Positions 2,345 to 59,918 of a stretch of DNA of 64,000 nucleotides are shown piece after piece. The notes under the pieces were generated by a model. That model was not told the origin of the DNA, did not search any database, and saw only the letters and a list, made by a program, of their open reading frames with translations. This DNA comes from Spirochaetota bacterium (GTDB lineage: Bacteria > Spirochaetota > UBA4802 > JAFGJZ01): the NCBI GenBank assembly GCA_035395685.1, contig DAOPBR010000002.1, positions 84,488 through 148,487 of the forward strand, written 5' to 3'. A program made the position numbers and the translations under genes. The stretch's first letter is position 1; every line of letters begins with the position of its first letter.

Positions 2345-2700
2345 GGATCAGTGATTGCATGGTGTTATGCAATCACTGGAAGGTGCTACAAGGCGAAGTC
2401 TTATAGAGTACGCTAAACTCGCAGGCAGTCGGAACGATCCCGACAACCGAGACGCTACAAATCCGGCAGGAAGCCGGTTTAAAAGCGTCTCGACAGGAGC
2501 GGCTTCCATGCGGATTTATTTTTGGAATCATTACGTTATAAGTTTTTCTCAGCGAACATCCTATTCGCTTCGATTATAACTTGAAATTAACTTAACACCT
2601 CAAACTCCAAGGTAATGCTTGCGTTTTCCCGCTGTGGTCTTCAACCACCTCGCGGGCTATCTTTCCGCATCCATGCGGAAAGTAAAATCAGCATCGCGGT
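2345..2700. repeat. Solo copy of the hairpin-rich mosaic repeat family (same family as 56.1-59.3 kb)
   Basis: The element begins right after the stop codon of the GGDEF gene. It contains these modules: a perfect hairpin gtgattgcat-ggtgtt-atgcaatcac (2351-2376); 'ctcgcaggcagtcggaacgatcccgacaaccgagacgct'; 'aaaagcgtctcgacag'; and a segment of about 130 nt homologous to the 58343/58803/59176 unit. That unit includes stems agcgaa/ttcgct, cccgctgtgg/ccacctcgcggg (2628-2656) and tttccgca-tcca-tgcggaaa (2662-2681). Confidence 0.7.
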
Positions 2701-3837
2701 AATGATTAATGATATTCCGCTTATTATAAACGAATGCTGATATCCGAGTGAATGACCTATTTTCGGATAGATCATCATTCCGAAGAGGCTTCCTGCAACC
2801 TGAGATATTCCCCATATCCCCATGTTTCCGCCGAGCTTCTTCTTATCAAAAAGCGAACCGAGTCCGTGAAGTGTTACAAGCAAAACCATTCCGTCGCTCG
2901 CGCCGTGAATCATTCTCATCGCTAATGAAAAATAATAGTTCGGATTTACTTTCAGTATCATCGTTAATCCTGAAAAAAATACGCCGATCATAAATAATGT
3001 CAGAAGCGACATCTTGCCCTTCTCTATTATTCCGGCAAAGAAAAATGCAGCTGCCGGAAACGCTAAAAACTCGCACATCATGTATACTGTTGTATCCACC
3101 ATTCCGGCGTGTAAATAATGCTTAAGAAACAACGCGTAGCATGTTTCTTCGGCTCCCCAGTGCGATGAAAAGAGAAATAGAATTATACAGAAAACAATTA
3201 TACCCTTGCCTGTTTTCGTCTTTCCGTATTCGCGCAGAGGAACTTTTGCCGTATGTGTTTTTTTAAGCTTGAACGCTATCAAAGATGAAACTGCGAAAAT
3301 CACGCATGCTGCAATCGTCATCAGCTTAAAATTGGAATTTTCGCCGTAAATAATCTGAAAAAGAAAAACCGAGGCCAATCCGATAAATCCGGCCGCTGCA
3401 GTCACAAACAAATATTTTACAAGATGCTTTTCAGAATGTTCACCGAGAAGACGCTTTATGAAAAGTGAATCGAAGCTTGACTGAAATAGACTTTTTCCGC
3501 AAGCGAAAAGCGCGAATACGGGAATAAGCACCGCAAAGCTTGAGCCGAAACTGAGCGCCGCGGCAAAACCCGACAGAAGAAGAAACGCAAATAGAATGAG
3601 TTTTCTTGATTCTACCCTGTCATTAATAATCCCTGAAGGAAAAGCGAGAAGAAAGCTTACAAGCGGAACCTCCGCCATCAATATCCCCGTATAGATTCCT
3701 GTAATACCTTTCTGCTCAAGAAATAGAGGAATAAACCATGAAAGCGGAAACACAACCGCCTTAAATATAAAAAAGGCCGAATACTCGGCAAAATTTTTCT
3801 TCATAATTGCACCGCCGCGTGCAATTATGAACCGCAT
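2641..3837 (-). CDS. MFS-type transporter (about 12 TM helices)
   Basis: Strongly hydrophobic 398-aa ORF with repeated TM-helix pattern. The likely start is the internal Met (MKKNFAEY, about 3804). The last 9 codons (MRKDSPRGG) plus the stop are encoded inside the mosaic repeat at 2641-2682. Confidence 0.7.
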   Translation of the reverse strand: MRFIIARGGAIMKKNFAEYSAFFIFKAVVFPLSWFIPLFLEQKGITGIYTGILMAEVPLVSFLLAFPSGIINDRVESRKLILFAFLLLSGFAAALSFGSSFAVLIPVFALFACGKSLFQSSFDSLFIKRLLGEHSEKHLVKYLFVTAAAGFIGLASVFLFQIIYGENSNFKLMTIAACVIFAVSSLIAFKLKKTHTAKVPLREYGKTKTGKGIIVFCIILFLFSSHWGAEETCYALFLKHYLHAGMVDTTVYMMCEFLAFPAAAFFFAGIIEKGKMSLLTLFMIGVFFSGLTMILKVNPNYYFSLAMRMIHGASDGMVLLVTLHGLGSLFDKKKLGGNMGIWGISQVAGSLFGMMIYPKIGHSLGYQHSFIISGISLIITAMLILLSAWMRKDSPRGG

Positions 3838-11920: not shown

Positions 11921-12621
11921 ACTATATAATAGACAGTCAATTATTCTGGGTGACGCTTACGATAGGACTCTTTATTCTTGGCAAATATCTAAGCGCAAAA
12001 ACAAAATTCATTCTTTTTAATCCCGTTCTTTTTTCTGTAACTGTTCTGATAATACTTCTCAAACTCGCAGGAATAGATTATTCATCTTATAAATCCAACA
12101 CGGACATCATATCATTTTTTCTCGCGCCGTCAGTTATCGCTCTTGCTCTTCCTCTTTACAAAGAACTTGAAGAAATAAAAAAAAATCATATGGCTATTTT
12201 TATTTCTCTCACGGCAGGAAGCCTTGCCGGTCTTCTAAGTGTTTCCGGAATATCACTTCTGCTCGGCGCCGATACGCTTACAGTAATATCTCTTCTTCCC
12301 AAATCTGTTACAAGCGCAATAGCGATAGAAGTCTCATCTAAAATCGGAGGAGAACCCTCACTTACTGCAGGATTTGTCGTAATCACCGGAATCATCGGCG
12401 CCGGCGGAGGACTCTTCTTTTTACGTTTGATAAATGAGCACAGCCATAAAGGCGGCGGACTCGCTATTGGATGCGCAGCTCATGCACTTGGAACCGCGGC
12501 AATAGCTGAAAAAGGCGAAACATACGCCGCTTACGGCGGACTTGCTCTATGCGTCACAGGAATAATAACTTCCCTTCTCGCTCCCCTTTTCGCTTATATC
12601 ATCAAATATTTATACGGATGA
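11917..12621 (+). CDS. LrgB/CidB-family membrane protein
   Basis: 234-aa polytopic membrane protein. 4-bp overlap with the LrgA-like gene, the classic lrgAB pair. Confidence 0.75.
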   Translation: MNYIIDSQLFWVTLTIGLFILGKYLSAKTKFILFNPVLFSVTVLIILLKLAGIDYSSYKSNTDIISFFLAPSVIALALPLYKELEEIKKNHMAIFISLTAGSLAGLLSVSGISLLLGADTLTVISLLPKSVTSAIAIEVSSKIGGEPSLTAGFVVITGIIGAGGGLFFLRLINEHSHKGGGLAIGCAAHALGTAAIAEKGETYAAYGGLALCVTGIITSLLAPLFAYIIKYLYG

Positions 12622-19666: not shown

Positions 19667-20515
19667 TTATCTTAAAAGCTGGAGGACAGTCTGCGCTTTC
19701 TGATTAGCCTGAGCAAGCATTGAAGTGCCGCTCTGAACAAGAATCTGATCTTTAGTAAGATCAACCATTGTTTCAGCCATATCAGCGTCACGAATACGGG
19801 ATTCAGAAGCCTGAATGTTTTCATAAGCATTCATGAGACCTTTAGAAGCAAATTCGAGTCTGTTGTAATATGCTCCAAGATCCGCTCTCTGTTTTGCAAT
19901 CTTCTGAAGTGCTTCGTCGACAACACCGATTGTTCTGTTAGCTTTGTCAGCAGTCGAAAGATTTGCCAAGAATTCACCGGTTTTTTCTTTGAGGCTAAGA
20001 CCCTCAGCAGTCATAGTTCCGATGTAAACTCTTTCTCTCTGATGCATATTAGCTCCGATGTGGAACCACATAGAAGCCTTAGGATTAGTTCTGGAATAAT
20101 CACCAAGAAGAAGTTTAAATTTGTTAAACTCTGCCTGAGACGCAATTCTGTCAACTTCATCGATCAAAGCCGAAACTTCAACCTGGATGAGCTGGCGGTC
20201 TTCATTAGTATAAATACCGTTTGAAGACTGAACTGCAAGAACGCGTATTCTCTGAAGAATCTGAGAAGTCTGGTCAAGGTAACCTTCTGTAGTCTGAACA
20301 AAGCTCATGCCGTCTTCAGCATTTCTTTCAGCCTGACGAAGACCCTGAATCTGAGTTCTCATTTTTTCTGATACTGCAAGTCCGGAAGCATCGTCCCCTG
20401 ATTTGTTAATTCTCATACCGGAAGAAAGCTTCTCAGTAGATCTGTTAACGTCCCAGTGTTTGAACTTCAAAACACGGTTTGCATTAATCGCGCTCATGTT
20501 ATGGTTAATAATCAT
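19667..20515 (-). CDS. flaB: Flagellin FlaB (periplasmic flagellar filament core protein), copy 1
   Basis: [87 protein letters not shown]. Canonical spirochaete FlaB. An AGGAG RBS lies 8 nt upstream. Confidence 0.95.
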
Positions 20516-31668: not shown

Positions 31669-32112
31669 ACTTCACCTTCAGAATAGTTTTTTAGATGTTT
31701 CCGGTAAAGAATTATATCTTTACGTGTCTGTTACTGCAATAAAACAAAATACAGTGAAATGGCTACCAATTAAATAACTACTTCACCATAGAACCCCGAA
31801 TCTATTCTCCTGATAAGCATCTTGTTAAGTTTATAAAAAGCTTCTTCGCACACAAGGGCATAACTTTTCCCAAATTTTAACAACTCATTTTCATGAGGTA
31901 CTTTTTGCAATGGAATGAACTTTCCGGCATTTATATAACCCATCATATTTCCCATACAGGAGGCATCTCATGAAACTACTTGTATCAATTTTAACATTTT
32001 ATGTCATCCTTTTTTTACATTTAGCAGGGGACAGTCATAGTAAGATGCAATTAAAACCCTCGTTCTTTTGAAACGAATGTTTTAATTGCATTAAGAAAGA
32101 TATAATAATATA

Positions 32113-32545
<433 letters not shown>

Positions 32546-32546
32546 T

Positions 32547-33881
32547 TTACTCTATTGCCTGCAAAGAACGTTTTTTTATTATATTGCTGTAATATCTTCC
32601 GCTCTTTTTAATAATTCTTTTTTGAGAATCATAGTCAACTCCTATAATTCCAAATCTTTTATCATATCCGAAAGCCCATTCGAAATTATCCATTAATGAC
32701 CAGACATAATATGCTATCACATTTAATCCTTCTTCATTCATTTTTACAACTGCCTCAAGATGACTTCTTAAATATTCCAGCCTTTCAGTATCTTCAATTT
32801 CACCATTTTTTATTTCATCTTTAAATGCTGAACCATTTTCAGTAATCATTACCGGAATATCAGTATATTTTTCTCTAATCTGTCTGACAATATCAATAAA
32901 ACCTTCAGGAGAAATTTCCCAACCCATAGCAGTCTTCTTTCGGCCCATGTCAACATGCGATCCCTGCAAGAATGCATCTCGGTCATAACGCATGTTAAAA
33001 TCCATGTAGTAATTAACTCCAAGAAAATCTGTTTCTCCATTTATAATTTTGAGATCATCATCCTGAATGTGAGAAAAATCAATATGATTGGACTCGTAAT
33101 AATCAAGCATATCAACCGGATACTGACCTTTAAAAAGAGGTTCTAAAAACCATCGATTGGCAAAACCGTCATATCTTGAAGCTGCGAGCTTATCCGTTTC
33201 TGTTTCCGAATATGGATATGCAGGTCCTAAATTTAGAGTTATTCCAATTTTTGATTTAAGCCCCGTTTGCCGGAATATATTCAAAGCTCTGCCATGAGTC
33301 AGCAAAAGGTGATGCGCGGTTTGAATAGCATCCTGAAGATTTTTATGCCCTGGAGCATGCTGACCATAAAGATGCCCAAGCATACTTATGCAATACGGCT
33401 CATTATGAGTAACCCAGTATTTTACCCTATCTCCGAATTTATTAAATAAAAGTTCTGAATAATCTTCAAAATATCCGCAGATTTCTCTTGAAATCCATCC
33501 GCCCTTCTCATACATCCATTGAGGCAAATCCCAATGATACATAGTCAGCATCGGACTTATTCCATTATCAAGAAGCTTATCTATTAATCTATTATAAAAA
33601 TCAATTCCCTTCTCATTTACATGTCCGGGATGAGGAATAACTCTCGGCCAGGAAACAGAAAATCTGTAAGAATCAAGCCCGATTTCTTTCATCAATGCAA
33701 TATCATTTTCATAAAGATGATAATGGTCGCATGCAACATCTCCATTATCTCCATTAGCAATTTTACCGGGAATATGCGAAAACACATCCCAGATAGAAGA
33801 AGTCTTTCCATCACTATCATGTGCTCCCTCAATCTGATATGCTGCAGTTGCTGCACCAAAAATAAAATCCTTCTCAAACAT
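32547..33881 (-). CDS. GH1 beta-glucosidase
   Basis: Catalytic motifs VTHNEPYC (acid/base Glu) and MITENGSAF (nucleophile Glu). Full-length GH1, 444 aa. Confidence 0.9.
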   Translation of the reverse strand: MFEKDFIFGAATAAYQIEGAHDSDGKTSSIWDVFSHIPGKIANGDNGDVACDHYHLYENDIALMKEIGLDSYRFSVSWPRVIPHPGHVNEKGIDFYNRLIDKLLDNGISPMLTMYHWDLPQWMYEKGGWISREICGYFEDYSELLFNKFGDRVKYWVTHNEPYCISMLGHLYGQHAPGHKNLQDAIQTAHHLLLTHGRALNIFRQTGLKSKIGITLNLGPAYPYSETETDKLAASRYDGFANRWFLEPLFKGQYPVDMLDYYESNHIDFSHIQDDDLKIINGETDFLGVNYYMDFNMRYDRDAFLQGSHVDMGRKKTAMGWEISPEGFIDIVRQIREKYTDIPVMITENGSAFKDEIKNGEIEDTERLEYLRSHLEAVVKMNEEGLNVIAYYVWSLMDNFEWAFGYDKRFGIIGVDYDSQKRIIKKSGRYYSNIIKKRSLQAIE

Positions 33882-51822: not shown

Positions 51823-52671
51823 ATGATTATCAATCACAACGTCAGCGCGATTTTCGCACATCGCACACTCAAGTTTCACGACTGGAGTCTCACTTCTGAT
51901 ATCGAAAAACTTTCATCAGGCTTGAGAATCAATAAGGCCGGCGATGACGCGTCCGGACTTGCAGTATCTGAAAAAATGAGATCACAGATTCAGGGACTTC
52001 GTCAGGCTGAAAGAAACACAGAAGACGGCATGAGTCTTATACAGACTGCGGAAGGATATCTTGAGGAAACTCACGGAATCATTCAGCGTATACGTGTTCT
52101 TGCGGTGCAGGCGGCAAACGGTATTTATACACCTGAAGACCGTCAGCTGATTCAGGTTGAAGTATCCGAACTTATCGATGAAGTAGACCGTATTTCATCA
52201 CAGGCCGAGTTCAACAAGATGAAACTGTTGACAGGTTCGTTTGCAAGACTCAGACCAACCGCTTCAATGTGGTTCCATATGGGTCCGAACATGCACCAGA
52301 GAGAAAGAGTATTTATCGAGACAATGACTACAGCGGCACTAGGACTCAGAAACCCTACAACGCTTACATTTATATCGATCTCGACTCCGGGCAAAGCAAA
52401 CAGCGTAATAGGACTCGCGGACGAAGCTCTTAGAATTATATCAAAACAGAGAGCGGATCTTGGAGCATATTACAACAGACTCGAACATGCAGCGAAAGGA
52501 TTGATGAACGCGTACGAAAATACACAGGCATCAGAATCCCGCATCAGAGACACAGACATGGCAGAGCAGATGTCTTCATTCACAAGATATCAGATACTCC
52601 AGCAGGCTGCGACATCGATGCTCGCACAGGCGAATCAGAAGAGCCAGGGAGTGCTCAGACTGTTACAGTAA
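51823..52671 (+). CDS. flaB: Flagellin FlaB (periplasmic flagellar filament core protein), copy 2
   Basis: [87 protein letters not shown]. About 70% identical to copy 1. A GGAGG RBS lies upstream. Confidence 0.95.
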
Positions 52672-52801: not shown

Positions 52802-53875
52802 TCAAGCCATTACGCTTATCTTCTCTTCATCTAAAAACTCTTCCGTTGATAAAGTATGCGATAAAGTAATCTTTTTATTCTTAAACAACTTAGAAATATC
52901 TTTTTCAATTTTTTTTGCTAAATGATATGCCAAATTAACCGGAACAGCATTCCCAATCATTTTATATCCTGCTGTCAAATTATTGTATTTGAACACAAAG
53001 CTGTCTGGAAAAGTTTGTATCCGAGCACATTCACGAATACTTAATCTTCTGTATAAATGCTCTTGTCCTGGAGAAAATATTCTTTTATTCTGTTCAACAA
53101 AAACCATTTTGGGAGCTTGCGGATGTAAAGGAGCATGCCTTCCACCAGCTTGGATGGTAAACGAAACTTCATCCCAAGATCTCACTCTATTGCGAGACAT
53201 GAAAATCGTAGAGAAACCTCCAGTCATATATTCATGATTAGGAATAACGCATTTATTTCCATTCGTTTTTTGGAGAGAAAGCGCCGGTAAAGCATTATCC
53301 TTTAAATCATAAATGACATCTTTAAGAAGAACTTTATCGTGTTCAGTAATTGGTTCTGGAAAATTAAATTCTATTCCCAGATCAGAGCGATAACCAATAA
53401 AGAAAACTCGTTTTCTATCCTGTGGTACTCCATAATCTGATGCATTCAGAAGAGCGAATGATAAATTATAACCGCTTTCAACAAACATTTCTTTAATATT
53501 TTGCAATGCCTTACCATGTGTTGGCAACAACATTCCAGATACATTTTCAGCTAAAAAAAACAATGGTTTTTTATCACGCAAAATTCTGATAAAATCAAAA
53601 AACAATTGTCCTCTTTTATCATTAATTCCTCGAAGAGCGCCTGCTTCACTCCAACTTTGACAAGGTGGACCTCCAATAATACCGATGCATTCAGGAATTT
53701 CATTAGATGAAATTTCCGTTATACTTCTTTTATCTAAAATTGTTTTTTTATGATTAGCTTCAAATGTTTCCCATATTTCTTTGTCATATTCATTAGCCCA
53801 GACAATATTAAATCCAGCTTTTTGGAAACCTAAATCAAGTCCACCCGCTCCTGAAAAAAAAGAAACAATATTCAT
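52802..53875 (-). CDS. DNA (cytosine-5) methyltransferase, M.HaeIII-like (predicted GGCC specificity)
   Basis: Motif [12 protein letters not shown], motif [11 protein letters not shown], motif VI ENV, motif [16 protein letters not shown]-terminal variable region (..[41 protein letters not shown]..) resembles M.HaeIII/M.NgoPII as recalled. GGCC specificity is not verified. Confidence 0.9.
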
Positions 53876-53885
53876 TTATTTCTCC

Positions 53886-54872
53886 CTAAATTGTATTAAC
53901 CGATAAAGTATTCTTAAAAAGAGTATGAGGCGCACTTAGCAAATTGATGTCAAATTTTAATGATGGCTCAATTCTTGAACTGGCATTATGTATTCGAAAA
54001 GAAAGCTCCCAACCTTTATTAAATTTTACAATTATAGTTGTTAAAGAATTCTCTTTAAACTGAACATCTATAATCTGATCAGGTAGCCCGACAATGGGCG
54101 TAACAAATTTTGGAAACTTATCCTTAAAAGGCAAATTTAAAGTACCATGCAGATTAAAAGCTTGAATTTCAATATGATTCGTACTTCTTATAACTTTATA
54201 AAAATCTTTGTTACCAACTAAATATTCTATCATTCTTGAAGCTACTTGTTTTTTATTCATACTATATAATTTCAACAACTCATTTCGGAATGCTTCCAAA
54301 ATCGGCTTATATATTGATTCATGGTAATTGCCTAGCGTATCCCATTTCTGAGTGGATTTACTATCTATCTTAATTTTCTTTAACAAATCAAAAACCGGAG
54401 CTACATTTTCAAAATACTCTGATGAGCAATTAACACCAAGCCATTTATCGCCAAAATCTATATCATTAGATAAACGCGAATGCTTTACTGCGTGATGATT
54501 ATTTTTTGCAGATATGCCAATTTCCCATTTTTGCATTAGACGAATCGCAAGAACATCTCTTACATCACCTTCTTGCCCATGATTATCTGTCAATATTTCA
54601 AGTTGAAGCAAGTCCTTTTTATTTATACCATTTGAAAGACGAGGTTCAATATCAATCATAAAATTGACAGCAAAACTTGCACTTAATAAATAACGACTCT
54701 TTTCATTTTTATCGATACGGCTAAAACATTCTTCGGCAGTTATATACGCGGCGTTCTCAATAACTTGAACAGTAGTTTCTTTGGATAACTTCTCAAAAAA
54801 TTCTTTCAACAAAGCATATTCAAATGCTTTTCCACTTATCATTTGTTTTGAATTTTCAATCATGGATAACAC
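53886..54872 (-). CDS. Putative type II restriction endonuclease partnered with the m5C methyltransferase (HaeIII-type suspected)
   Basis: 328-aa ORF 10 bp upstream of the methyltransferase gene on the same strand. Size and context fit R.HaeIII-like enzymes. No motif was independently recognised. Confidence 0.5.
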   Translation of the reverse strand: MLSMIENSKQMISGKAFEYALLKEFFEKLSKETTVQVIENAAYITAEECFSRIDKNEKSRYLLSASFAVNFMIDIEPRLSNGINKKDLLQLEILTDNHGQEGDVRDVLAIRLMQKWEIGISAKNNHHAVKHSRLSNDIDFGDKWLGVNCSSEYFENVAPVFDLLKKIKIDSKSTQKWDTLGNYHESIYKPILEAFRNELLKLYSMNKKQVASRMIEYLVGNKDFYKVIRSTNHIEIQAFNLHGTLNLPFKDKFPKFVTPIVGLPDQIIDVQFKENSLTTIIVKFNKGWELSFRIHNASSRIEPSLKFDINLLSAPHTLFKNTLSVNTI

Positions 54873-55116
54873 CTATAATTTGTTGAGAGTCAAATCCTCT
54901 TAACTTATTACAAACCATCGCTATCATCGTCAATACTAAAACCATGAACAAAGAACATGTTCGTCATAGTAATTTATAAACAAGAAAATTCTCACCAGTA
55001 ACCTCTCAGCGCCAAATTACTCGAATACTTTACAAAGGATATAACGTATTTTAGAAATTAATTATCAATATAACTTTTTTTTTGCAATCCGTTGAAAGCG
55101 GTCTGAAAATCAAGGC

Positions 55117-55166
55117 GAAAAAGGTGGACATCCCGTCAGGCTGTTTTACATTATTGAGGAGAGGGA
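55117..55166 (+). repeat. Right, degenerate copy of the flaB-terminator-derived direct repeat (R-M cassette boundary)
   Basis: gaaaaaggtggacatcccgtcaggctgttttacattattgaggagaggg matches 52714-52760 at about 70% identity. The stem complementarity is lost in this copy. Confidence 0.5.
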
Positions 55167-55260
55167 AATTAGAACAGGGGTCAGTCCGAGATAGTTATTT
55201 CCTCAAAAAAAGAAAGCTTCTATATTGAATCATTTCGTATTATATAAGATGGATAACATT

Positions 55261-55773
55261 TTAATTATCCTTTTCTGGAATAATCGAAGCTAAATCATCT
55301 TCAACATCAATTCCATATAAAGTTGCAATTTGAGCAACCATGATACCAAAATTACCTCTTAATTCTCCTAACGCAGAAGCAAAAGTCCAACTTGCCCAAT
55401 GACCCCAACTCCTTGCATTATCCATGAATCTATTATCTTCAATATTCATTTTATCAAGAAATTTCCTACAGGATATACGCATAGCTTTAACTGGATCATA
55501 CAGTTTTGATTTATTAGACAAACTTTGCAATTCCGTAGTTAAAAATTTACGAATTTCAATAATGGATTGAACACAGTGGTTGGGCACTTCCATTTCGCTC
55601 GGACTATATAAAACCCTGCGATCTTCGAGAAAACGAATAATCCGTTTTGCAATATTACATTCTGCCTCTGATGGATTCCAAGAAATTCCAAATACAGAAC
55701 AATTAATTCCGGTTATTCTTTCTCTGATTTCTGAAAATTTCATAATCATTCCTAAATCAAAATTTCTATCCAT
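55261..55773 (-). CDS. Hypothetical protein, orphan 170-aa ORF in the accessory island
   Basis: Clean ORF with its own 330-bp AT-rich upstream region. No recognisable motif (it lacks the Vsr, HTH and PIN signatures that were checked). Confidence 0.5.
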   Translation of the reverse strand: MDRNFDLGMIMKFSEIRERITGINCSVFGISWNPSEAECNIAKRIIRFLEDRRVLYSPSEMEVPNHCVQSIIEIRKFLTTELQSLSNKSKLYDPVKAMRISCRKFLDKMNIEDNRFMDNARSWGHWASWTFASALGELRGNFGIMVAQIATLYGIDVEDDLASIIPEKDN

Positions 55774-56099
55774 TTATCCTAAACATAGATGATACTTCTG
55801 TCACATACTCCACCAAAAATCTAATAATACACGAAGCTAAACCTATAAAATGTTTCAATCTCGCTTCTTTTGTTTTTTCATTTTAAAGTTGCGAACTGTT
55901 CAGCTTTAACCGATGAACACCCTAAGATCTTCCACTCAATGATTATTATGATCTTTATGCATAATGTTTTCATGAATGTCAAATCCAAAATAATCCAACT
56001 GTCACAGAAAAAATTACGCGTATGCTGAGCGCAGCGAATAAACGCGTAATGATATTATAAAATGAATGATTTCTAAAATCAAGAAAGTGCGCTAAGCAC

Positions 56100-56337
56100 T
56101 TCAAATAAAGACGGATGATAGCAATAACACCAAAACCGTCCGACGCAGTCGGACACCAAATAAGCGCAGATTATCGCAGTCATTTCGAAGAAATGCGCGA
56201 TAGTTCTGTCGCGACAAGCCCCGCGCAGCGGTGCCCTTTTCTTTCGCCGAATTTCTTTTGGGCACGCAAAAGAAATCGGCAAACGGATTTAAAAGGTGCG
56301 AAGCACCTTTTGTGTCTCGCATGACACCATGCGAAAC
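56100..56337. repeat. GC-rich, hairpin-dense mosaic element abutting the mazF stop codon
   Basis: Hairpins aaaaggtgc-gaa-gcacctttt (56291-56311), tcgcatg-acacc-catgcga (56317-56334, 3 nt from the mazF stop), gccgaatttctttt...aaaagaaatcggc, and gtccgac-gca-gtcggac (56137-56153). These modules are shared with the element at 57105-57488. Confidence 0.7.
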
Positions 56338-56661
56338 TTATTCTACCAACATTTCTTTAATAACTGCTTTGATCTTCGTGATCGTTTTCTTGTCAAGTTT
56401 ACCTAATTTTTTAATTATTCTTACTTTGTCTATCGTTCTAATCTGATCTATAACTATCCATCCATCCTTCAAATTAAAATTTGTCTTAACACGGGATGGA
56501 TAGTCATGTCCTTTTGTTGTCATTGGCGCAATGATTATTGTTGAAATATTATGATTCATTTCATTCGGCGAAATTACGGTACATGGCCGGCTTTTTTTAA
56601 TTTCATGACCGACTGTTGGGTCAAGATTTACCAACACAACATCATATTGATCTATTACCAT
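56338..56661 (-). CDS. mazF: MazF/PemK-family endoribonuclease toxin
   Basis: ..YDVVLVNLDPTVGHEIKKSRPCTVISPNEMN..STIIIAPMTT.. typical PemK/MazF fold. 7-bp overlap with the upstream antitoxin gene. Confidence 0.85.
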   Translation of the reverse strand: MVIDQYDVVLVNLDPTVGHEIKKSRPCTVISPNEMNHNISTIIIAPMTTKGHDYPSRVKTNFNLKDGWIVIDQIRTIDKVRIIKKLGKLDKKTITKIKAVIKEMLVE

Positions 56662-56924
56662 TCGAAATCTTCCTGCTCAATATCCAATGAATCATCAATA
56701 AGCAAAGAGTCGTGTTTATTTTCAGACATTTCTTTGAACTTTTTCGACCATTCTCTTCTGGGTGTTTCTTTTACAGGAATAATAATGATTTTCTGATTTT
56801 CAATCTTCATTTCAACTTCTGTTCCGATATGACATTGTGATAGAACTGAAGAAGGTATTCGTATCCCCTTTGAGTTTCCTATTTGTACAATATTGACTTT
56901 CATAATGAATAACCTATCGATCAT
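56655..56924 (-). CDS. mazE: MazE/AbrB-type (SpoVT/AbrB fold) antitoxin
   Basis: MKVNIVQIGNSKGIRIPSSVL.. swapped-hairpin AbrB N-terminus with an acidic C-tail. Confidence 0.8.
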   Translation of the reverse strand: MIDRLFIMKVNIVQIGNSKGIRIPSSVLSQCHIGTEVEMKIENQKIIIIPVKETPRREWSKKFKEMSENKHDSLLIDDSLDIEQEDFEW

Positions 56925-57104
56925 TTAACGTAATCACAATATAGTTACATGTCAACTGTTTAATTTCTTCAAATCAACTCTTCCCCTAACCTCATTCCGC
57001 CGCATTCGAACAAACCAAAATCAATGCAAGATTAAATCGCCATAAAATATACCGCTTCATAACGATTGAAATCTGCATGCTTAGTGATTACAGAAATTTC
57101 AAAT

Positions 57105-57488
57105 CTAAAAACAAACCGCCTGGCGTGGGGAAAAGATGAATGAAAACAAAATCATTAAAACGTCCGACGCAGTCGGACACTAAGGCGGTAGGAGAACCGC
57201 CACCGAGGCGCTTCACAAGCAAACAGGAAGTTTGCACAAAGCGCCTCGCAACGGGCGACCGCAGCATCCGGCAAAGCCGGTGCGAGGAATTCGCCCGACA
57301 AAAGCCAGGAGTGGGATCTCAAAGGGATGAGGAGCGGCGACTGAGCTCCTCGTCCCTTTGAATATTCTCGCATGATCCATGCGAAACCGGATTACAAAGG
57401 CGAAGCCTTTGACAACAAGTCCGGTGACCGGACAAATCGGATTTAAAAGGTGCTCTGCACCTTTTATGTATCACATGACACCATGTAA
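57105..57488. repeat. GC-rich, hairpin-dense mosaic element abutting the vapC stop codon
   Basis: aaaaggtgc-tct-gcacctttt (57445-57465); tcgcatg-atc-catgcga; caaaggc-gaa-gcctttg; gtccgg-tga-ccggac; a long stem aagggatgaggagc...gctcctcgtccctt; gaggcgctt...aagcgcctc (57205-57247) enclosing gcaaac..gtttgc; gtccgac-gca-gtcggac (57162-57178); and the aaaacaaaccgccWggYgtgg module (57107-57134). Confidence 0.7.
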
Positions 57489-57887
57489 TTAAACCCAGTT
57501 CTCCATTCTCAATTTCTTAACCTTTGAAAATTCCTTCAAATTATTAGAAACCAAAATTAAATCTAACGATATTGCCTGTGCCGCTAATAAATAATCCATC
57601 GCTCCGATCGGTTGACCGGATTTTTCCAAGTCCGATCTGATAATCCCATATTCTTTTGCCGCTTTAAAATCATAATCAATCAATTTAAACGGCAACAGGA
57701 ATTCAATTAATGCAATTCGGCTGTTATCAGGATTTTTACTTTTATTGATGCCGTATTCGAGTTCCGAAACCGTAATTGAAGATATGGCAATATCGTCTAT
57801 TTCATAATTCGACAACCGCTGTATAACAGAAACGGGTCTTTTATTGATAATATAAATACATATGTTTGTATCAAGAAGATACTTCAT
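57489..57887 (-). CDS. vapC: VapC PIN-domain ribonuclease toxin
   Basis: MKYLLDTNICIY.. with the conserved PIN acidic residues (D6, E42-like SSITVSELEYG, D-containing C-terminal region). Confidence 0.85.
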   Translation of the reverse strand: MKYLLDTNICIYIINKRPVSVIQRLSNYEIDDIAISSITVSELEYGINKSKNPDNSRIALIEFLLPFKLIDYDFKAAKEYGIIRSDLEKSGQPIGAMDYLLAAQAISLDLILVSNNLKEFSKVKKLRMENWV

Positions 57888-58129
57888 TCGATAATTTCTC
57901 TCGCTTCAATGGCCGGCTGAATCCGTTCAGACATAAAATTTTCAGGAAACTTCTCCAGACTTTTTGAAAAATTATCCCAAACTTTATCTTTCGGTATAAG
58001 AATAACCATATCATCAATCCGTTTAACAAATACAGATTCGGTTAAAAATCTATATTCCTTTGGCAATCTTACGGCCTGACTCCTTCCGGTTGTAAATATT
58101 TTTGCTGCGTCCATATAATTATCCCCCAT
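57884..58129 (-). CDS. vapB: VapB (VagC/AbrB-type) antitoxin
   Basis: ..TTGRSQAVRLPKEYRF.. SpoVT/AbrB motif. 4-bp overlap with vapC. Confidence 0.8.
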   Translation of the reverse strand: MGDNYMDAAKIFTTGRSQAVRLPKEYRFLTESVFVKRIDDMVILIPKDKVWDNFSKSLEKFPENFMSERIQPAIEAREIIE

Positions 58130-58283
58130 TCATCTGATAGATATCATGATACATATCTTTTGACAAAGTATCAAGTCTTTTTTTAACATTGAATTAAGTG
58201 ATGAGAATGGATTGTTGAAATGTTAGGCGGTAATTGCAGAAAAACAATTCGTCATCATCAGATGATTTATTGAATGCCGAATC

Positions 58284-59320
58284 AAAAACAAACCGCCAGG
58301 TGTGGAAAAAAAATACGTGCGCCCTCACCTCGGCTCCTGTAAAATTTACTCACAAATTCAGTGTCCCATTGCTTTATCTCCGCGAACTTCCTGTTCGCTC
58401 CGAATGCAACTTTAAATCAATTTAACACCTATATCTCCGAGGTAACGCTTGCGTTCTCCTGCTGCGGACTTCGTCCGCCTCGCAGGCAGTCGGAACGATC
58501 CCGACAATCGAGACGCTTCCCTCGCAAACTGCTCGACTCTTTTTGTGCCGTCCTGGCACAGAGTCTCGTTGCCATCATCGTGATGGCTCAAAGTTTGCAC
58601 AAAAGCGTCTCGACAGTTTCCGCCTCCGTGCGTTAGAGCATTTATGCTTGAATACAATTGTTGCTTTTTCTCAACGGTCATCCTTGACCGTTTCGATTAT
58701 ATCAATAATGCCAATTATCACCTCAAACTATGCGGTAACGCTTGCGGTCTCCCGCTATGGACTTCGTCCATAGCGGGCAATGTTTCCGCCTCCGTGCGGA
58801 TTTACTCACAAATTCAGTATACCATTGCTTTATCTCCGCGAACTTCCTGTTCGCTCCGGATACAACATCAAATTGATTTATCACCTCAAACTATGCGGTA
58901 ACGCTTGCGTTCTCCTGCTGCGGACTTCGTCCATCTCGCAGGCAGTCGGAACGATCCCGACAATCGAGACGCTTCCCTCGCAAACAGGAGGTTTGCACAA
59001 AAGCGTCTCGACAGTTTCTACTCCTCGGCGCGTTTGCCGTCCTGGCCGCGCCTCATTGCCGGAAGGAATCCGGCAACAAATCGCAACTTGTCGTCACGGA
59101 GGACGACACAAAGCGATTTGCAATGCACATCCTGTGCAAGCGCCTGCGGATTTGCTAATGACTTCAATCAAATGATTCGTTATCTCCGCGAACTTCCTGT
59201 TCGCTCCGAATGTAACTTTAAATCAATTTAACACCTATATCTCCGAGGTAACGCTTGCGTTCTCCTGCTGCGGACTCCGTCCGCCTCGCAGGCAATGTTT
59301 CCGCCTCCGTGCGGAAACTG
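58284..59320. repeat. ORF-less tandem array of the mosaic hairpin repeat family: about 2.3 copies of a 460-bp composite unit plus partial modules
   Basis: A unit of about 145 nt starts at 58343, 58803 and (5'-truncated) 59176. Each copy is followed by modules agtcggaacgatcccgacaatcgagacgcttccctcgcaaac (58487, 58947), gtttgcacaaaagcgtctcgacagtttc (58589, 58994) and gtttccgc-ctccgt-gcggaaac (58781, 59297-59318). A unique 60-nt insert occupies 58529-58588. A leader module aaaacaaaccgccaggtgtgg lies at 58284-58310. The ORFs the caller reports inside the array are artefacts of GC-rich repeats. Confidence 0.75.
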
Positions 59321-59387
59321 ATTGACAATATCTGCCTATAATTTGTGCTTATCCCAAATACTTCATAATTTCCGGAGGAACCGAACC

Positions 59388-59918
59388 ATGCCCCAAATAG
59401 GAATAATTCTCGGCAGCGATTCCGATCTCCCTAAAATCAGACAGTGCCCTGAAATTCTCGATAAATTCGGTGTCAGTTTTGAGATCATCTTCTCATCTGC
59501 TCACCGCACACCAGAACAGACCAAAGAATGGGTTGAAAGCGCGCGTTCACGCGGCATCAAAGTAATCATCGCCGCTGCAGGCGGCGCGGCGCATCTTCCT
59601 GGTGTTTGCGCGGCTCACACCACCCTTCCGATTGTCGGAATTCCGATTGAATCTCCGGTATCGGGCGGTCTCGATTCCATTCTCTCAATAATTCAGATGC
59701 CGTCCGGAATTCCGGTAGCTGCGATGCCGGCAGGTAAAGCGGGTGGAGCAAACTCGGCGCTTTTCGCTTTATCAATTCTTTCGGTTTCCGACTCTTCGAT
59801 TGCCGAAAAACTCGCGGCATACCGCGAAGAAATGAAAACTGAAATCAAAAAGAAAAATGATCTTTTAAATGAAAAAGGCTACAAAGAATATATTGATTCA
59901 CTCGGAGTTAAAAAATGA
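59388..59918 (+). CDS. purE: N5-carboxyaminoimidazole ribonucleotide mutase
   Basis: [34 protein letters not shown].. canonical PurE. The start is reassigned to ATG 59388, preceded by GGAGGA. Confidence 0.9.

Follow-up and report, generated by a model that had tools for sequence, protein, structure and literature searches.

Intergenic arrays of hairpin modules beside toxin-antitoxin cassettes in uncultured Spirochaetota

Several bacteria carry mosaics of short hairpin repeats between their genes. In Neisseria, the NIME/dRS3-NTS repeats, recognised by the single-stranded DNA (ssDNA) nuclease SsnA, form intergenic hairpin-repeat mosaics around variable genes (PMC11893778, PMC3184786). In Escherichia coli, repetitive extragenic palindromes (REP) are combined with short motifs into bacterial interspersed mosaic elements (BIMEs), which carry compensatory changes in their stems and occupy intergenic sites, including those that follow stop codons; in Streptococcus pneumoniae the BOX elements, made of boxA, a variable number of boxB and boxC and predicted to fold stably, are modular as well. 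Here we describe hairpin arrays that resemble all three in these respects, found in a 64,000-nt stretch of a Spirochaetota bacterium (assembly GCA_035395685.1, contig DAOPBR010000002.1, positions 84,488 to 148,487), hereafter called the window. An earlier note on this DNA had singled out a region at 58.3-59.3 kb as part of an undescribed mosaic repeat family, and had proposed that it works as a folded single strand, either as a structured non-coding RNA (ncRNA) family or as ssDNA recombination sites like the attC sites of integrons. Our analysis confirms that the flagged region belongs to a real, previously uncatalogued family of modular hairpin repeats beside toxin-antitoxin (TA) cassettes in uncultured Spirochaetes. 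As to what the arrays are, we put even confidence in their being a lineage-specific intergenic mosaic repeat, of the general kind of BIMEs, NIME/dRS3-NTS and BOX, that acts as ssDNA.

The arrays and their covarying stems

The window holds four arrays, three of them close together (E1, 55978-56337; E2, 57095-57488; E3, 58275-59320, the flagged region) and a fourth 54 kb away (2345-2700); all four are co-oriented on the + strand, and each is a string of small hairpin modules. Self-BLAST recovered every sharing of modules that the earlier note had claimed between these loci, with all matches on the + strand. Hairpins with a stem of at least 6 bp occur once per 79 nt in the arrays vs once per 381 nt in the remaining window, and, compared with dinucleotide shuffles folded under DNA parameters, the z-scores are -7.1 (+) and -8.4 (-) for 55978-56340, -13.5 and -11.5 for 57095-57490, and -12.3 (+ strand) for 58330-59320. 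The individual hairpins quoted in the note were all found in place, with the correction that the loop at 56317-56334 is ACAC, of 4 nt, and not 'acacc'; likewise, both members of the tcgcatg-type pair exist, but relative to the 56317-type hairpin the one at 2349-2378 is inverted, not co-oriented. An assembly artefact is ruled out, as the identical array, traced through the MazF protein encoded beside it, is present in independent JGI, NCBI and ENA assemblies; MAGs with this contig include GCA_035367765.1 and GCA_035377685.1.

The stems keep their pairing through compensatory changes. For 19 distinct copies of the hairpin pair Hp0 and H1, taken from the window and related loci, 94.4% of the pair cells are standard pairs, compared with 79.3% when partners are shuffled, a level that 0 of 500 shuffles reached; 57 cells are changed on both sides (18.9 in the shuffles), and controls with slid partners pair in only 33-41%. 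Judged by eye, the other hairpins of the unit behave similarly. H2 has the stems gtcgg/ccgac and gcagg/cctgc, both with the loop AACGATC, and ggcggt/accgcc with the loop TAGGAGAA; the outer stem of H3 exists as cgagacgc, cgaggcgc and gcgatgcc, each with its own complement, and at least nine different stems of the H3 inner hairpin carry an AGGAG or AGGAA loop. In the H2-H3 variant of E2 (57184-57248) the stems are fully covaried. This covariation consists of a limited set of whole-stem swaps common to related copies, and not of many independent events. Together with the covarying loop-to-upstream pairing and the invariant triplex-capable tract described below, it bears out the proposal that conservation favours structure above sequence, an indication of a folded single strand.

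The family is also undescribed within the searches made. Rfam 15 at the gathering score, run over the whole window, gave no match in any array, and at E<=10 over 55800-59450 only three chance-level matches were obtained (CRISPR-DR at 21 bits and two microRNA models at ~19 bits). BLAST of the arrays against plasmid and phage collections and exact-pattern scans of viral contigs with three modules were likewise negative.

E3 (58275-59320, +) lies between the vapB start and the purE promoter, opens with a left-end motif variant, GAATCAAAAACAA (58279-58291), and closes with the terminal hairpin H4. It contains ~3.5 tandem Hp0-spacer-H1-(H2-H3)-H4 units plus additional hairpins at 59030-59150. Each unit consists of Hp0 (gcgaac-TTCCT-gttcgc), an AT-rich spacer with the conserved CACCTCAAACT and TTGCGKT, H1 (cctgc t gcggac-TTC-gtccgc ctc gcagg), optionally H2 (gtcgg-AACGATC-ccgac) and H3 (cgagacgct...agcgtctcg around the inner hairpin gcaaac-AGGAG-gtttgc), and H4. 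A covariance model of the Hp0-spacer-H1 unit (R1) finds five copies in the window (2546-2658, 58376-58488, 58668-58779, 58832-58944 and 59182-59294, all +), of which 58376-58488 scores best, at 130 bits. H2 with a long form of H3, where the loop of the inner hairpin contains a three-way junction, is found at 58489-58612 (+), and short H2-H3 forms at 58945-59010, 2428-2492 and 57184-57248. The terminal H4, gtttccgc-CTCCGT-gcggaaac, occupies 59297-59318 (+); internal or truncated copies lie at 58617-58632 and 58783-58800, and a variant at 2661-2682. The 3' foot of H4 (...GAAAC) is a recurrent junction; behind it stands a further unit, a different module, the stop codon of a toxin gene, or the promoter region of purE or rplM.

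Hp0 (GCGAACTTCCTGTTCGC, 58838-58854) is ~82% identical to the reverse complement of the H3 inner hairpin (GCAAACAGGAGGTTTGC, 58980-58996). It seems that the same hairpin type is present in both orientations inside an array that otherwise runs in one direction, and because of this the Shine-Dalgarno-like AGGAG loops co-occur with their complements TTCCT and CTCC.

The distant array (2345-2700, +) runs through the same module cycle as E3, entered at another point: an inverted end-type hairpin (2349-2378), H2 (2428-2444), H3 (2448-2492), Hp0-spacer-H1 (2546-2658) and H4 (2661-2682). It begins 3' of a GGDEF gene, just after its stop (2342), and overlaps the 3' end of a convergent MFS gene (2641-3837, -). 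The last ~12 codons of this MFS gene (...WMRKDSPRGG) are encoded by the array hairpin H4 (2641-2700 region); the same tail is shared by a 96%-identical relative, while an 83%-identical orthologue without the array ends differently.

E2 (57095-57488, +), bounded by the region upstream of mazE and by the stop codon of vapC, is a mosaic of Type I and E3-type modules. It carries a left-end motif variant (57095), gtccgac-GCA-gtcggac (57162-57178), the short H2-H3 form, a 17-bp hairpin (57319-57361) and caaaggc-GAA-gcctttg (57395-57411), and its end hairpin acatg-ACAC-catgt directly adjoins the vapC stop codon. E1, the Type I element (55978-56337, +), is bordered by the region upstream of DUF6650 and by the mazF stop codon; its start is at ~55978, and not at 56100 as given earlier, since both the conserved left-end motif and the homology to other loci reach that far. 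Its modules are the left-end motif CAAATCCAAAATAA (55980-55993), several c-GNA-g hairpins, the terminator-like aaaaggtgc-GAA-gcacctttt (56291-56311), and the end hairpin tcgcatg-ACAC-catgcga followed by AAC (56317-56337), which the toxin stop codon of mazEF directly adjoins.

Across loci, arrays thus have recognizable ends: they begin with CAAATCCAAAAYAA or a near variant, and end with H4 or with tcgcatg-ACAC-catgcga plus AAC, the right-end hairpins finishing in ...GCGRAAAC. The left-end motif was found in six sequence contexts among the loci and, counted with the window variants at 57095 and 58279, beside five different neighbours. The elements are indeed GC-richer than the surrounding DNA, as the earlier note had it, with a GC fraction of 0.44-0.51 in the arrays, 0.29-0.35 in the TA cassettes and spacers, and 0.40 in the window overall.

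Loop chemistry and the Type I core

If the arrays act as a folded single strand, the loops and mismatches of their hairpins should carry information on whether this strand is DNA or RNA. We counted loops over 129 distinct array hairpins, after collapse to the inner 5 bp plus loop. Triloops account for 52 of the 129 (40%), vs 18% in the remaining window (p=1e-7); 31 of these 52 read GNA on one or other strand, compared with 13 of 102 control triloops (13%, p=3e-9), and a C-G pair closes 20 of the 31. Among the GNA triloops GAA is the most frequent and GTA is absent, and triloop differences between homologous hairpins affect the middle base only (gtccgac-GCA/GAA-gtcggac, gagc-GCA/GAA-gc). None of the 25 tetraloops in the arrays is GNRA or UNCG. 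The d(C-GNA-G) motif is a DNA mini-hairpin that only GNA triloops form and that depends on the C-G closing pair; for d(GCGNAGC) the order of stability is A>G>C>T, while the RNA versions are much less stable, and functional RNAs favour GNRA/UNCG loops (PMC13037366; PMC3201870). The array loops fit this published order at both of its ends.

Single mismatches in otherwise perfect stems are balanced between the two strands: over all hairpins we count 9 GT/TG vs 11 AC/CA, and in the aligned unit 7 vs 9. The arrays therefore lack an RNA wobble signature, since in a structure that is transcribed, G.U should be much better tolerated than A.C on the strand concerned. Fold z-scores are also alike on both strands. 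An RNA from the - strand, considered for its lower minimum free energy and more numerous G.U pairs, was rejected, since shuffles attribute both to base composition and the z-scores are equal. As to replication-strand orientation, the GC skew of the flanks, read in array orientation, is positive for the DUF3467 locus described below and negative for the intergenic ones; these flanks are short, and gene orientation dominates them.

In the light of these counts, the label of a structured ncRNA family is not supported. One or several structured ncRNAs read from the + strand are still the main rival explanation, unlikely in our judgement, which draws some weight from the triplex pseudoknot and the terminator-like hairpin as well as from the co-orientation and the conservation of the spacers. 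In that case the Type I element could be a small-RNA-like gene that ends at the terminator-like hairpin at 56291-56311, with the triple-helix pseudoknot protecting or regulating the RNA, and the tandem Type II units could present their AGGAG/GGA loops to a CsrA-like protein or to the ribosome. Covarying stems around conserved loops, AGGAG/AGGAA loops on so many different stems, the strict co-orientation of all copies and the resemblance of aaaaggtgc-GAA-gcacc-TTTTGTGT to an intrinsic terminator all speak for such RNAs, as does the presence of the H2-H3 module on the mRNA sense strand of the DUF3467 gene. Besides the DNA-type triloops, the missing GNRA/UNCG loops and the lack of a G.U excess over A.C on either strand, they are opposed by the lack of an Rfam match even at E<=10, by the lack of a convincing + strand promoter upstream of any array, and by a module content that varies between strains 94-97% identical, unlike that of a conserved RNA gene.

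Several narrower ideas were considered and dropped. A promoter and terminator scan gave no consistent array transcription unit, the TA promoters lying in unique spacers, and the left-end motif was discarded as an outward -35/UP element, as better promoters lie closer to the genes. A CsrA sponge working through GGA loops was rejected because these loops occur on both strands, the same hairpin type being present in both orientations, and because the RNA wobble signature is lacking. Open reading frames (ORFs) inside the arrays have no Pfam match, and the differences between strains are module insertions and deletions, not codon-wise changes, which disposes of coding potential; kissing-loop pairing of TTCCT with AGGAG is not conserved in units with the three-way-junction form of H3.

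The Type I core (56231-56282, +), whose pairing is read from the sequence and whose fold is predicted, supplies a further argument for a single strand. In order, it comprises GTGCCC (56231-36), TTTTCTTTC (56237-45), GCCGA ATTTCTTTT, the loop GGGCAC (56260-65) and AAAAGAAAT CGGC, and can also be parsed as GTGCCC-TTTTCTTTC-GCCGAATTTCTTTT-GGGCAC-GC-AAAAGAAATCGGC. The loop GGGCAC is complementary to the upstream GTGCCC, and this pairing covaries between loci (CGCCC:GGGCG in L014, CAGC:GCTG in L041, CGGC:GTCG in L034); the outer part of the long stem covaries too (CCGA/TCGG, TCC/GGA, GGTAC/GTACC). While the flanking stem covaries, the tracts TTTTCTTT, TTTCTTTT and AAAAGAAA are invariant across nine variants; variant loci of the core are L001, L003, L007, L014, L017, L029, L034 and L041. 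The first pyrimidine tract fits the purine strand in the parallel Hoogsteen code with seven T.A-T and one C+.G-C triples, so that TTTTCTTT-spacer-TTTCTTTT-loop-AAAAGAAA should be able to form an intramolecular pyrimidine-motif triple helix, joined in most variants with the covarying loop-to-upstream pairing of a pseudoknot. A plain duplex palindrome needs neither this pairing nor an invariant triplex tract, and the two together therefore argue for a folded single strand. The predicted fold would need a free single strand, which could be ssDNA or else RNA, the latter on the + strand only; the covariation of the pseudoknot and the fit of the tracts to U.A-U/C+.G-C triples on the + strand alone are thus also points for the ncRNA.

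Taken together, GNA triloops, symmetric mismatches and a single-strand fold favour the broader alternative of the earlier note, a function as ssDNA, while its narrower labels of ncRNA and of attC, to which we return below, are not supported.

Turnover of the arrays and their neighbouring cassettes

The family is confined to a narrow uncultured clade. An exact 20-mer of H2 was found in four Spirochaetota metagenome-assembled genomes (MAGs), plus one chance match, among 185,579 species genomes, and in 23 metagenome contigs from digesters and activated sludge; the carriers form a clade of uncultured Spirochaetota from these two habitats. The matches in a Chloroflexia MAG (L004) and in L020 were set aside as chance, lying in unrelated high-GC coding DNA.

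Array neighbours in these relatives are TA, restriction-modification (RM), DUF3800, HEPN, DUF6650 and HigBA cassettes, which differ between relatives, or purE or rplM downstream. In L003, L011, L016 and L025 an array again lies upstream of purE with a different cassette (RHH-PIN), and in L014 and L023 upstream of rplM; elsewhere it adjoins a type I RM system with phd-vapC and DUF3800 (L005, L007), a HEPN gene (L012) or higBA genes (L021). Array-scale matches are confined to one strand within every contig.

Whole modules set apart strains that are 94-97% identical to the window. The differences seen are 108 nt of extra hairpins in two blocks, of which one lies within the loop of the hairpin at 57319-57361, a further ~300 nt following the E3 left end, and a tandem series shorter by one unit. 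Between such strains an inner stem is also swapped (gcaaac/gtttgc vs tccgac/gtcgga), with the AGGAA loop and the flanks unchanged. At the MFS locus, a 96%-identical relative retains only the last unit, with other modules upstream, and an 83%-identical orthologue lacks an array and has a plain terminator. The arrays are hypervariable between near-identical strains, at spots where TA, RM and defence cassettes differ between relatives. They change module by module: modules are deleted or inserted, frequently within another hairpin's loop, tandem units undergo unequal crossover, and stems are exchanged under a loop that stays the same.

One module has also entered a gene. In ten contigs H2-H3 lies within a small ORF, reading ...CCGCAG/TCGG...GTCTCGCAG/TTTGCC with the slashes marking the borders of the insert, which is 69 nt or 23 codons long, bounded by direct CGCAG repeats and on the sense strand of the gene. 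The host ORF is DUF3467: its Pfam score of 21.2 bits, below the cutoff, becomes 33.1 bits once the insert is removed in silico, and 76 residues then align with 77 positions of the profile. In a comparison of two lineages, identity is 96% for the insert and 81-88% for the flanking coding DNA; two of the three differences in the insert amount to a compensatory change from A-T to G-C in the inner stem. The insert sites lie at 1826-1900 in L002, 12635-12709 in L017, 2554-2627 in L021 and 1605-1638 in L001; the insert is in frame in L002 and L017, preceded by TGA in L021, L022 and L027, and partially deleted in L001 and L015. The target GCAG/TTT resembles the array junction of H2-H3 (GCAG...CAG/TTTCC). 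Two further variants of the Type I core, in L001 and L017, lie ~4-7 kb from the insert on the opposite strand.

Such turnover invites the view that the arrays are neutral palindromic debris, generated and kept perfect by template switching (quasi-palindrome correction), unequal crossover and gene conversion and accumulating in tolerant intergenic DNA alongside acquired cassettes, so that the 'compensatory' changes would be mutational. Template switching is an established source of perfect inverted repeats, and whole-block stem changes between near-identical strains with identical flanks speak for this view. Reciprocal crossover chimeras in H1 fit as well (H1 at 58914-58942 is a chimera with two broken pairs, and a crossover chimera is likewise present in L028 at 12263-12376), and such chimeric copies with broken stems count against an ncRNA too. 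The symmetry of mismatches between strands and the failure to find an associated protein in the window or the scanned flanks would also agree with debris. A purely mutational process, however, would not yield the strong enrichment of GNA triloops, and it sits poorly with loops and spacers that are conserved while stems vary, with the invariant triplex tract and covarying pseudoknot pairing, with an H2-H3 insert better conserved between lineages than its flanks, and with end motifs conserved across different contexts. We therefore regard neutral debris as rather improbable.

The cassettes themselves suggest another explanation, in which the arrays are integron-like or other ssDNA cassette-capture sites, with cassettes inserted at the hairpin foot (...GAAAC) and the left-end motif. 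The flagged region is part of an island bounded by a flagellin gene (51823-52671) and purE (59388-59918), in which all genes are on the - strand: a HaeIII-type RM pair (52802-54872), DUF6650 (55261-55773), mazEF (56338-56924) and vapBC (57489-58129). E1, E2 and E3 occupy the non-coding gaps between DUF6650, mazEF, vapBC and purE; the mazEF cassette (PemK toxin and MazE antitoxin) thereby lies between E1 and E2 and the vapBC cassette (PIN toxin and MazE-type antitoxin) between E2 and E3, both as context of the repeats and not part of them. Here and elsewhere arrays alternate with small cassettes (TA, DUF6650, DUF3800, HEPN); the end hairpin directly adjoins the stop codons of toxin genes, one and the same mazEF cassette is found behind two different end hairpins at an identical junction, the left-end motif stands beside its five different neighbours, and the hairpins are of the ssDNA type.

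Integron attC sites share several of these traits: structure conserved over sequence, function as folded ssDNA, and alternation with small cassettes that often include TA pairs. They differ in being single imperfect hairpins of 55-140 nt, whereas each array consists of many short hairpins (5-17 bp), and the arrays have neither IntI nor the R''/L''-L'/R' architecture. No tyrosine or other recombinase is encoded in the window, and the RYYYAAC...GTTRRRY pair occurs 0 times on either strand of the four arrays, so that the R''/R' boxes of attC are missing. Integron cassettes are co-oriented, each ORF having its site at the 3' end; here the orientation of cassettes is not fixed, being antisense to the arrays in the window and on the same strand in L005 (phd-vapC) and L021 (higBA), and it was on these three grounds, integrase, boxes and orientation, that the attC-like label was discarded. 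Hairpin loops vary in length from 4 to 6 nt, unfit for a fixed crossover spacer; the exact MazF protein was found on at least 24 contigs, the 10 places shown among them all being the same purE island or its fragments and most of the others having been grouped as similar places; arrays also exist without a cassette, upstream of rplM and after the GGDEF gene. A cassette-capture site in this sense is very unlikely.

Other features of the window lie apart from the arrays. The block 52802-55773, with the HaeIII-type methylase and endonuclease pair and the DUF6650 gene, is low in GC (0.32), lies directly upstream of the TA cassettes and looks like a horizontally acquired defence islet; the arrays start only after DUF6650, and the RM pair has no flanking array. 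The two flagellin genes (19667-20515 and 51823-52671) encode 282 aa each with the same Pfam architecture, on opposite strands ~31 kb apart. A 23S rRNA 3' remnant at 32110-32600 (-) scores 190 bits against LSU_rRNA_bacteria (model positions 1885-2925) with an internal gap of 548 model positions, most of domain V being gone; it sits in an 878-nt gap between genes for a WG-repeat protein and a GH1 glycosidase, and looks like a decayed rRNA fragment and not a functional gene.

Mode of action and relation to known systems

Based on the above, we suggest that the hairpins matter as folded ssDNA and not as RNA, and that replication, strand transfer or DNA uptake would expose them. They may be recognised and moved by a protein that acts in trans and is encoded elsewhere than in the window; an HUH- or RAYT-type transposase (RAYT, REP-associated tyrosine transposase) or a site-specific ssDNA nuclease would be candidates. 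The evidence fits modules that are selected as DNA hairpins and that turn over, by insertion, deletion, unequal crossover and gene conversion, at sites of cassette exchange, and the arrays might serve as portable homology blocks that make the adjoining cassettes easy to swap. The ssDNA-recognising partner is pure inference on our part, and the promotion of cassette exchange we infer likewise.

A number of observations weigh against this reading. The copy number is low, with two loci in 64 kb and ~five genomic contexts of the H2 20-mer across the collections scanned; REP or families of miniature inverted-repeat transposable elements usually number in the hundreds. Pfam scans of non-overlapping ORFs of at least 90 aa plus mazE and vapB across the window found no integrase, transposase, HUH protein, GIY-YIG nuclease or reverse transcriptase (RT), and none of these was found in the scanned flanks of related loci. 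No terminal inverted repeats were seen at the array ends or at the ends of the 69-nt module, and the only repeat resembling a target duplication is CGCAG, from one insertion, which would fit a duplication, microhomology, or a target together with a matching end of the element. Both strands carry GNA loops (20 on +, 11 on -, p=0.15), so that they pick out no single functional strand, and the strict co-orientation and conserved non-palindromic spacers (CACCTCAAACT, TTGCGKT) are equally expected of a transcribed element. A pseudoknot with a U.A-U-type triplex is, moreover, classically an RNA motif.

A bolder version would make the arrays the cis half of an unrecognised ssDNA-hairpin system, serving either integrase-free capture of TA and defence cassettes or as templates for RT-made cDNA hairpins, with the GNA mini-hairpins and the triplex/pseudoknot being recognised or functional; we consider this quite improbable. 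Least probable, and remote in our view, is the specific proposal that they are templates of an RT encoded elsewhere and are copied into short ssDNA hairpins as in UG27 systems, where the functional product is a DNA hairpin, a cDNA templated by the array (bioRxiv 10.64898/2026.09.22.753630). UG27 ncRNA arrays likewise consist of variable tandem units that are structured, sequence-diverse and gained or lost between close relatives, and UG27 clades are reported to be associated with Spirochaetota (bioRxiv 10.64898/2026.09.22.753630); a requirement to fold as RNA and again as the complementary DNA would account at once for perfect Watson-Crick pairing in the stems, for the symmetry of mismatches and for loops of the DNA type. 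The present arrays, however, have no RT, sORF or bORF nearby, with no RVT-family match in the window or in the flanks of scanned loci and no accessory ORFs there; their units are not ~150 nt long, and the conserved UG27 motif AUCN7UANAG, which in those systems brackets the central hairpin, has 6 matches in the window vs 9.7 expected, none in an array. UG27 arrays adjoin their RT in prophages (bioRxiv 10.64898/2026.09.22.753630), while these are chromosomal, dispersed and absent from the scanned viral contigs.

Should the ssDNA reading be right, the arrays would be a natural case of covarying stems that arise from selection on folded DNA and not RNA, and a warning for RNA-discovery pipelines that equate covariation with ncRNA. 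They add the phylum Spirochaetota and a distinct architecture to the intergenic mosaic repeats, with nested and diverse hairpins, DNA mini-hairpin triloops and a triplex-capable pseudoknot, within a family confined to its narrow clade. They also mark the turnover of TA, restriction and defence cassettes, and could point to an ssDNA-binding or -cutting protein and to the mechanism by which such islands are assembled.

Among known repeats, the modularity of BOX elements and the behaviour of the Rickettsia palindromic elements (RPEs) offer partial parallels. RPEs are small palindromic modules that lie in frame in protein genes, as the 69-nt H2-H3 module does in DUF3467 (a 23-codon insert in L002 and L017); this is a likeness of behaviour only. 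A single in-gene insertion site is known for the arrays, disrupted or decayed in some lineages. The arrays have no known sequence similarity to BOX or RPE, and comprise another, much more diverse set of modules. A genome holds tens to hundreds of BOX or RPE copies. Palindrome-associated transposable elements derived from IS200/IS605 have subterminal hairpins but no terminal inverted repeats, a short conserved target on their 5' side, and a single orientation of insertion. In the arrays an end hairpin and a one-directional arrangement are seen, and a target might form part of the conserved left end; the window encodes neither TnpA nor TnpB, and for a whole array there is no pair of filled and empty sites.

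With REP and BIMEs there is a parallel in mechanism, RAYT-mediated mobilisation of ssDNA being of the kind that we suppose for the arrays. BIMEs, however, repeat the same imperfect palindrome of 20-40 nt, typically in alternating orientation, whereas the hairpin types of an array are all different and run in one direction: the 129 distinct hairpins are of many types, and array-scale matches keep to a single strand per contig. GNA triloops, hairpins nested in the loops of other hairpins and a triplex/pseudoknot module are features of the arrays but not of REP, and no RAYT (a Y1 HUH transposase) is encoded in the 64-kb window.

The Neisseria repeats offer a parallel in mode. The NTS hairpin has a G-M-A-type loop and acts as ssDNA, which is the mode that we favour for the arrays (PMC11893778), both kinds of repeat are hot spots of genome plasticity, and here too hairpin clusters surround variable genes, in this case the TA, RM, DUF3800, HEPN and DUF6650 cassettes. 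There is, on the other hand, no sequence relation, no GIY-YIG gene was found nearby, and the copy number is apparently much lower; the degenerate Ssn-related SRM motif HGTCWYN(0-2)YYVSBRHN(0-5)WNVSBRGN(0-2)RNCYNB (PMC11893778) has 0 matches on both strands of the window. Where Neisseria uses a single repeat of 20-30 bp to bracket its units, the spirochaete arrays hold many different hairpins. We thus take the likeness to NIME/NTS-SsnA and to BIME/REP as one of kind and, probably, of mode of action, and not as membership in either family.

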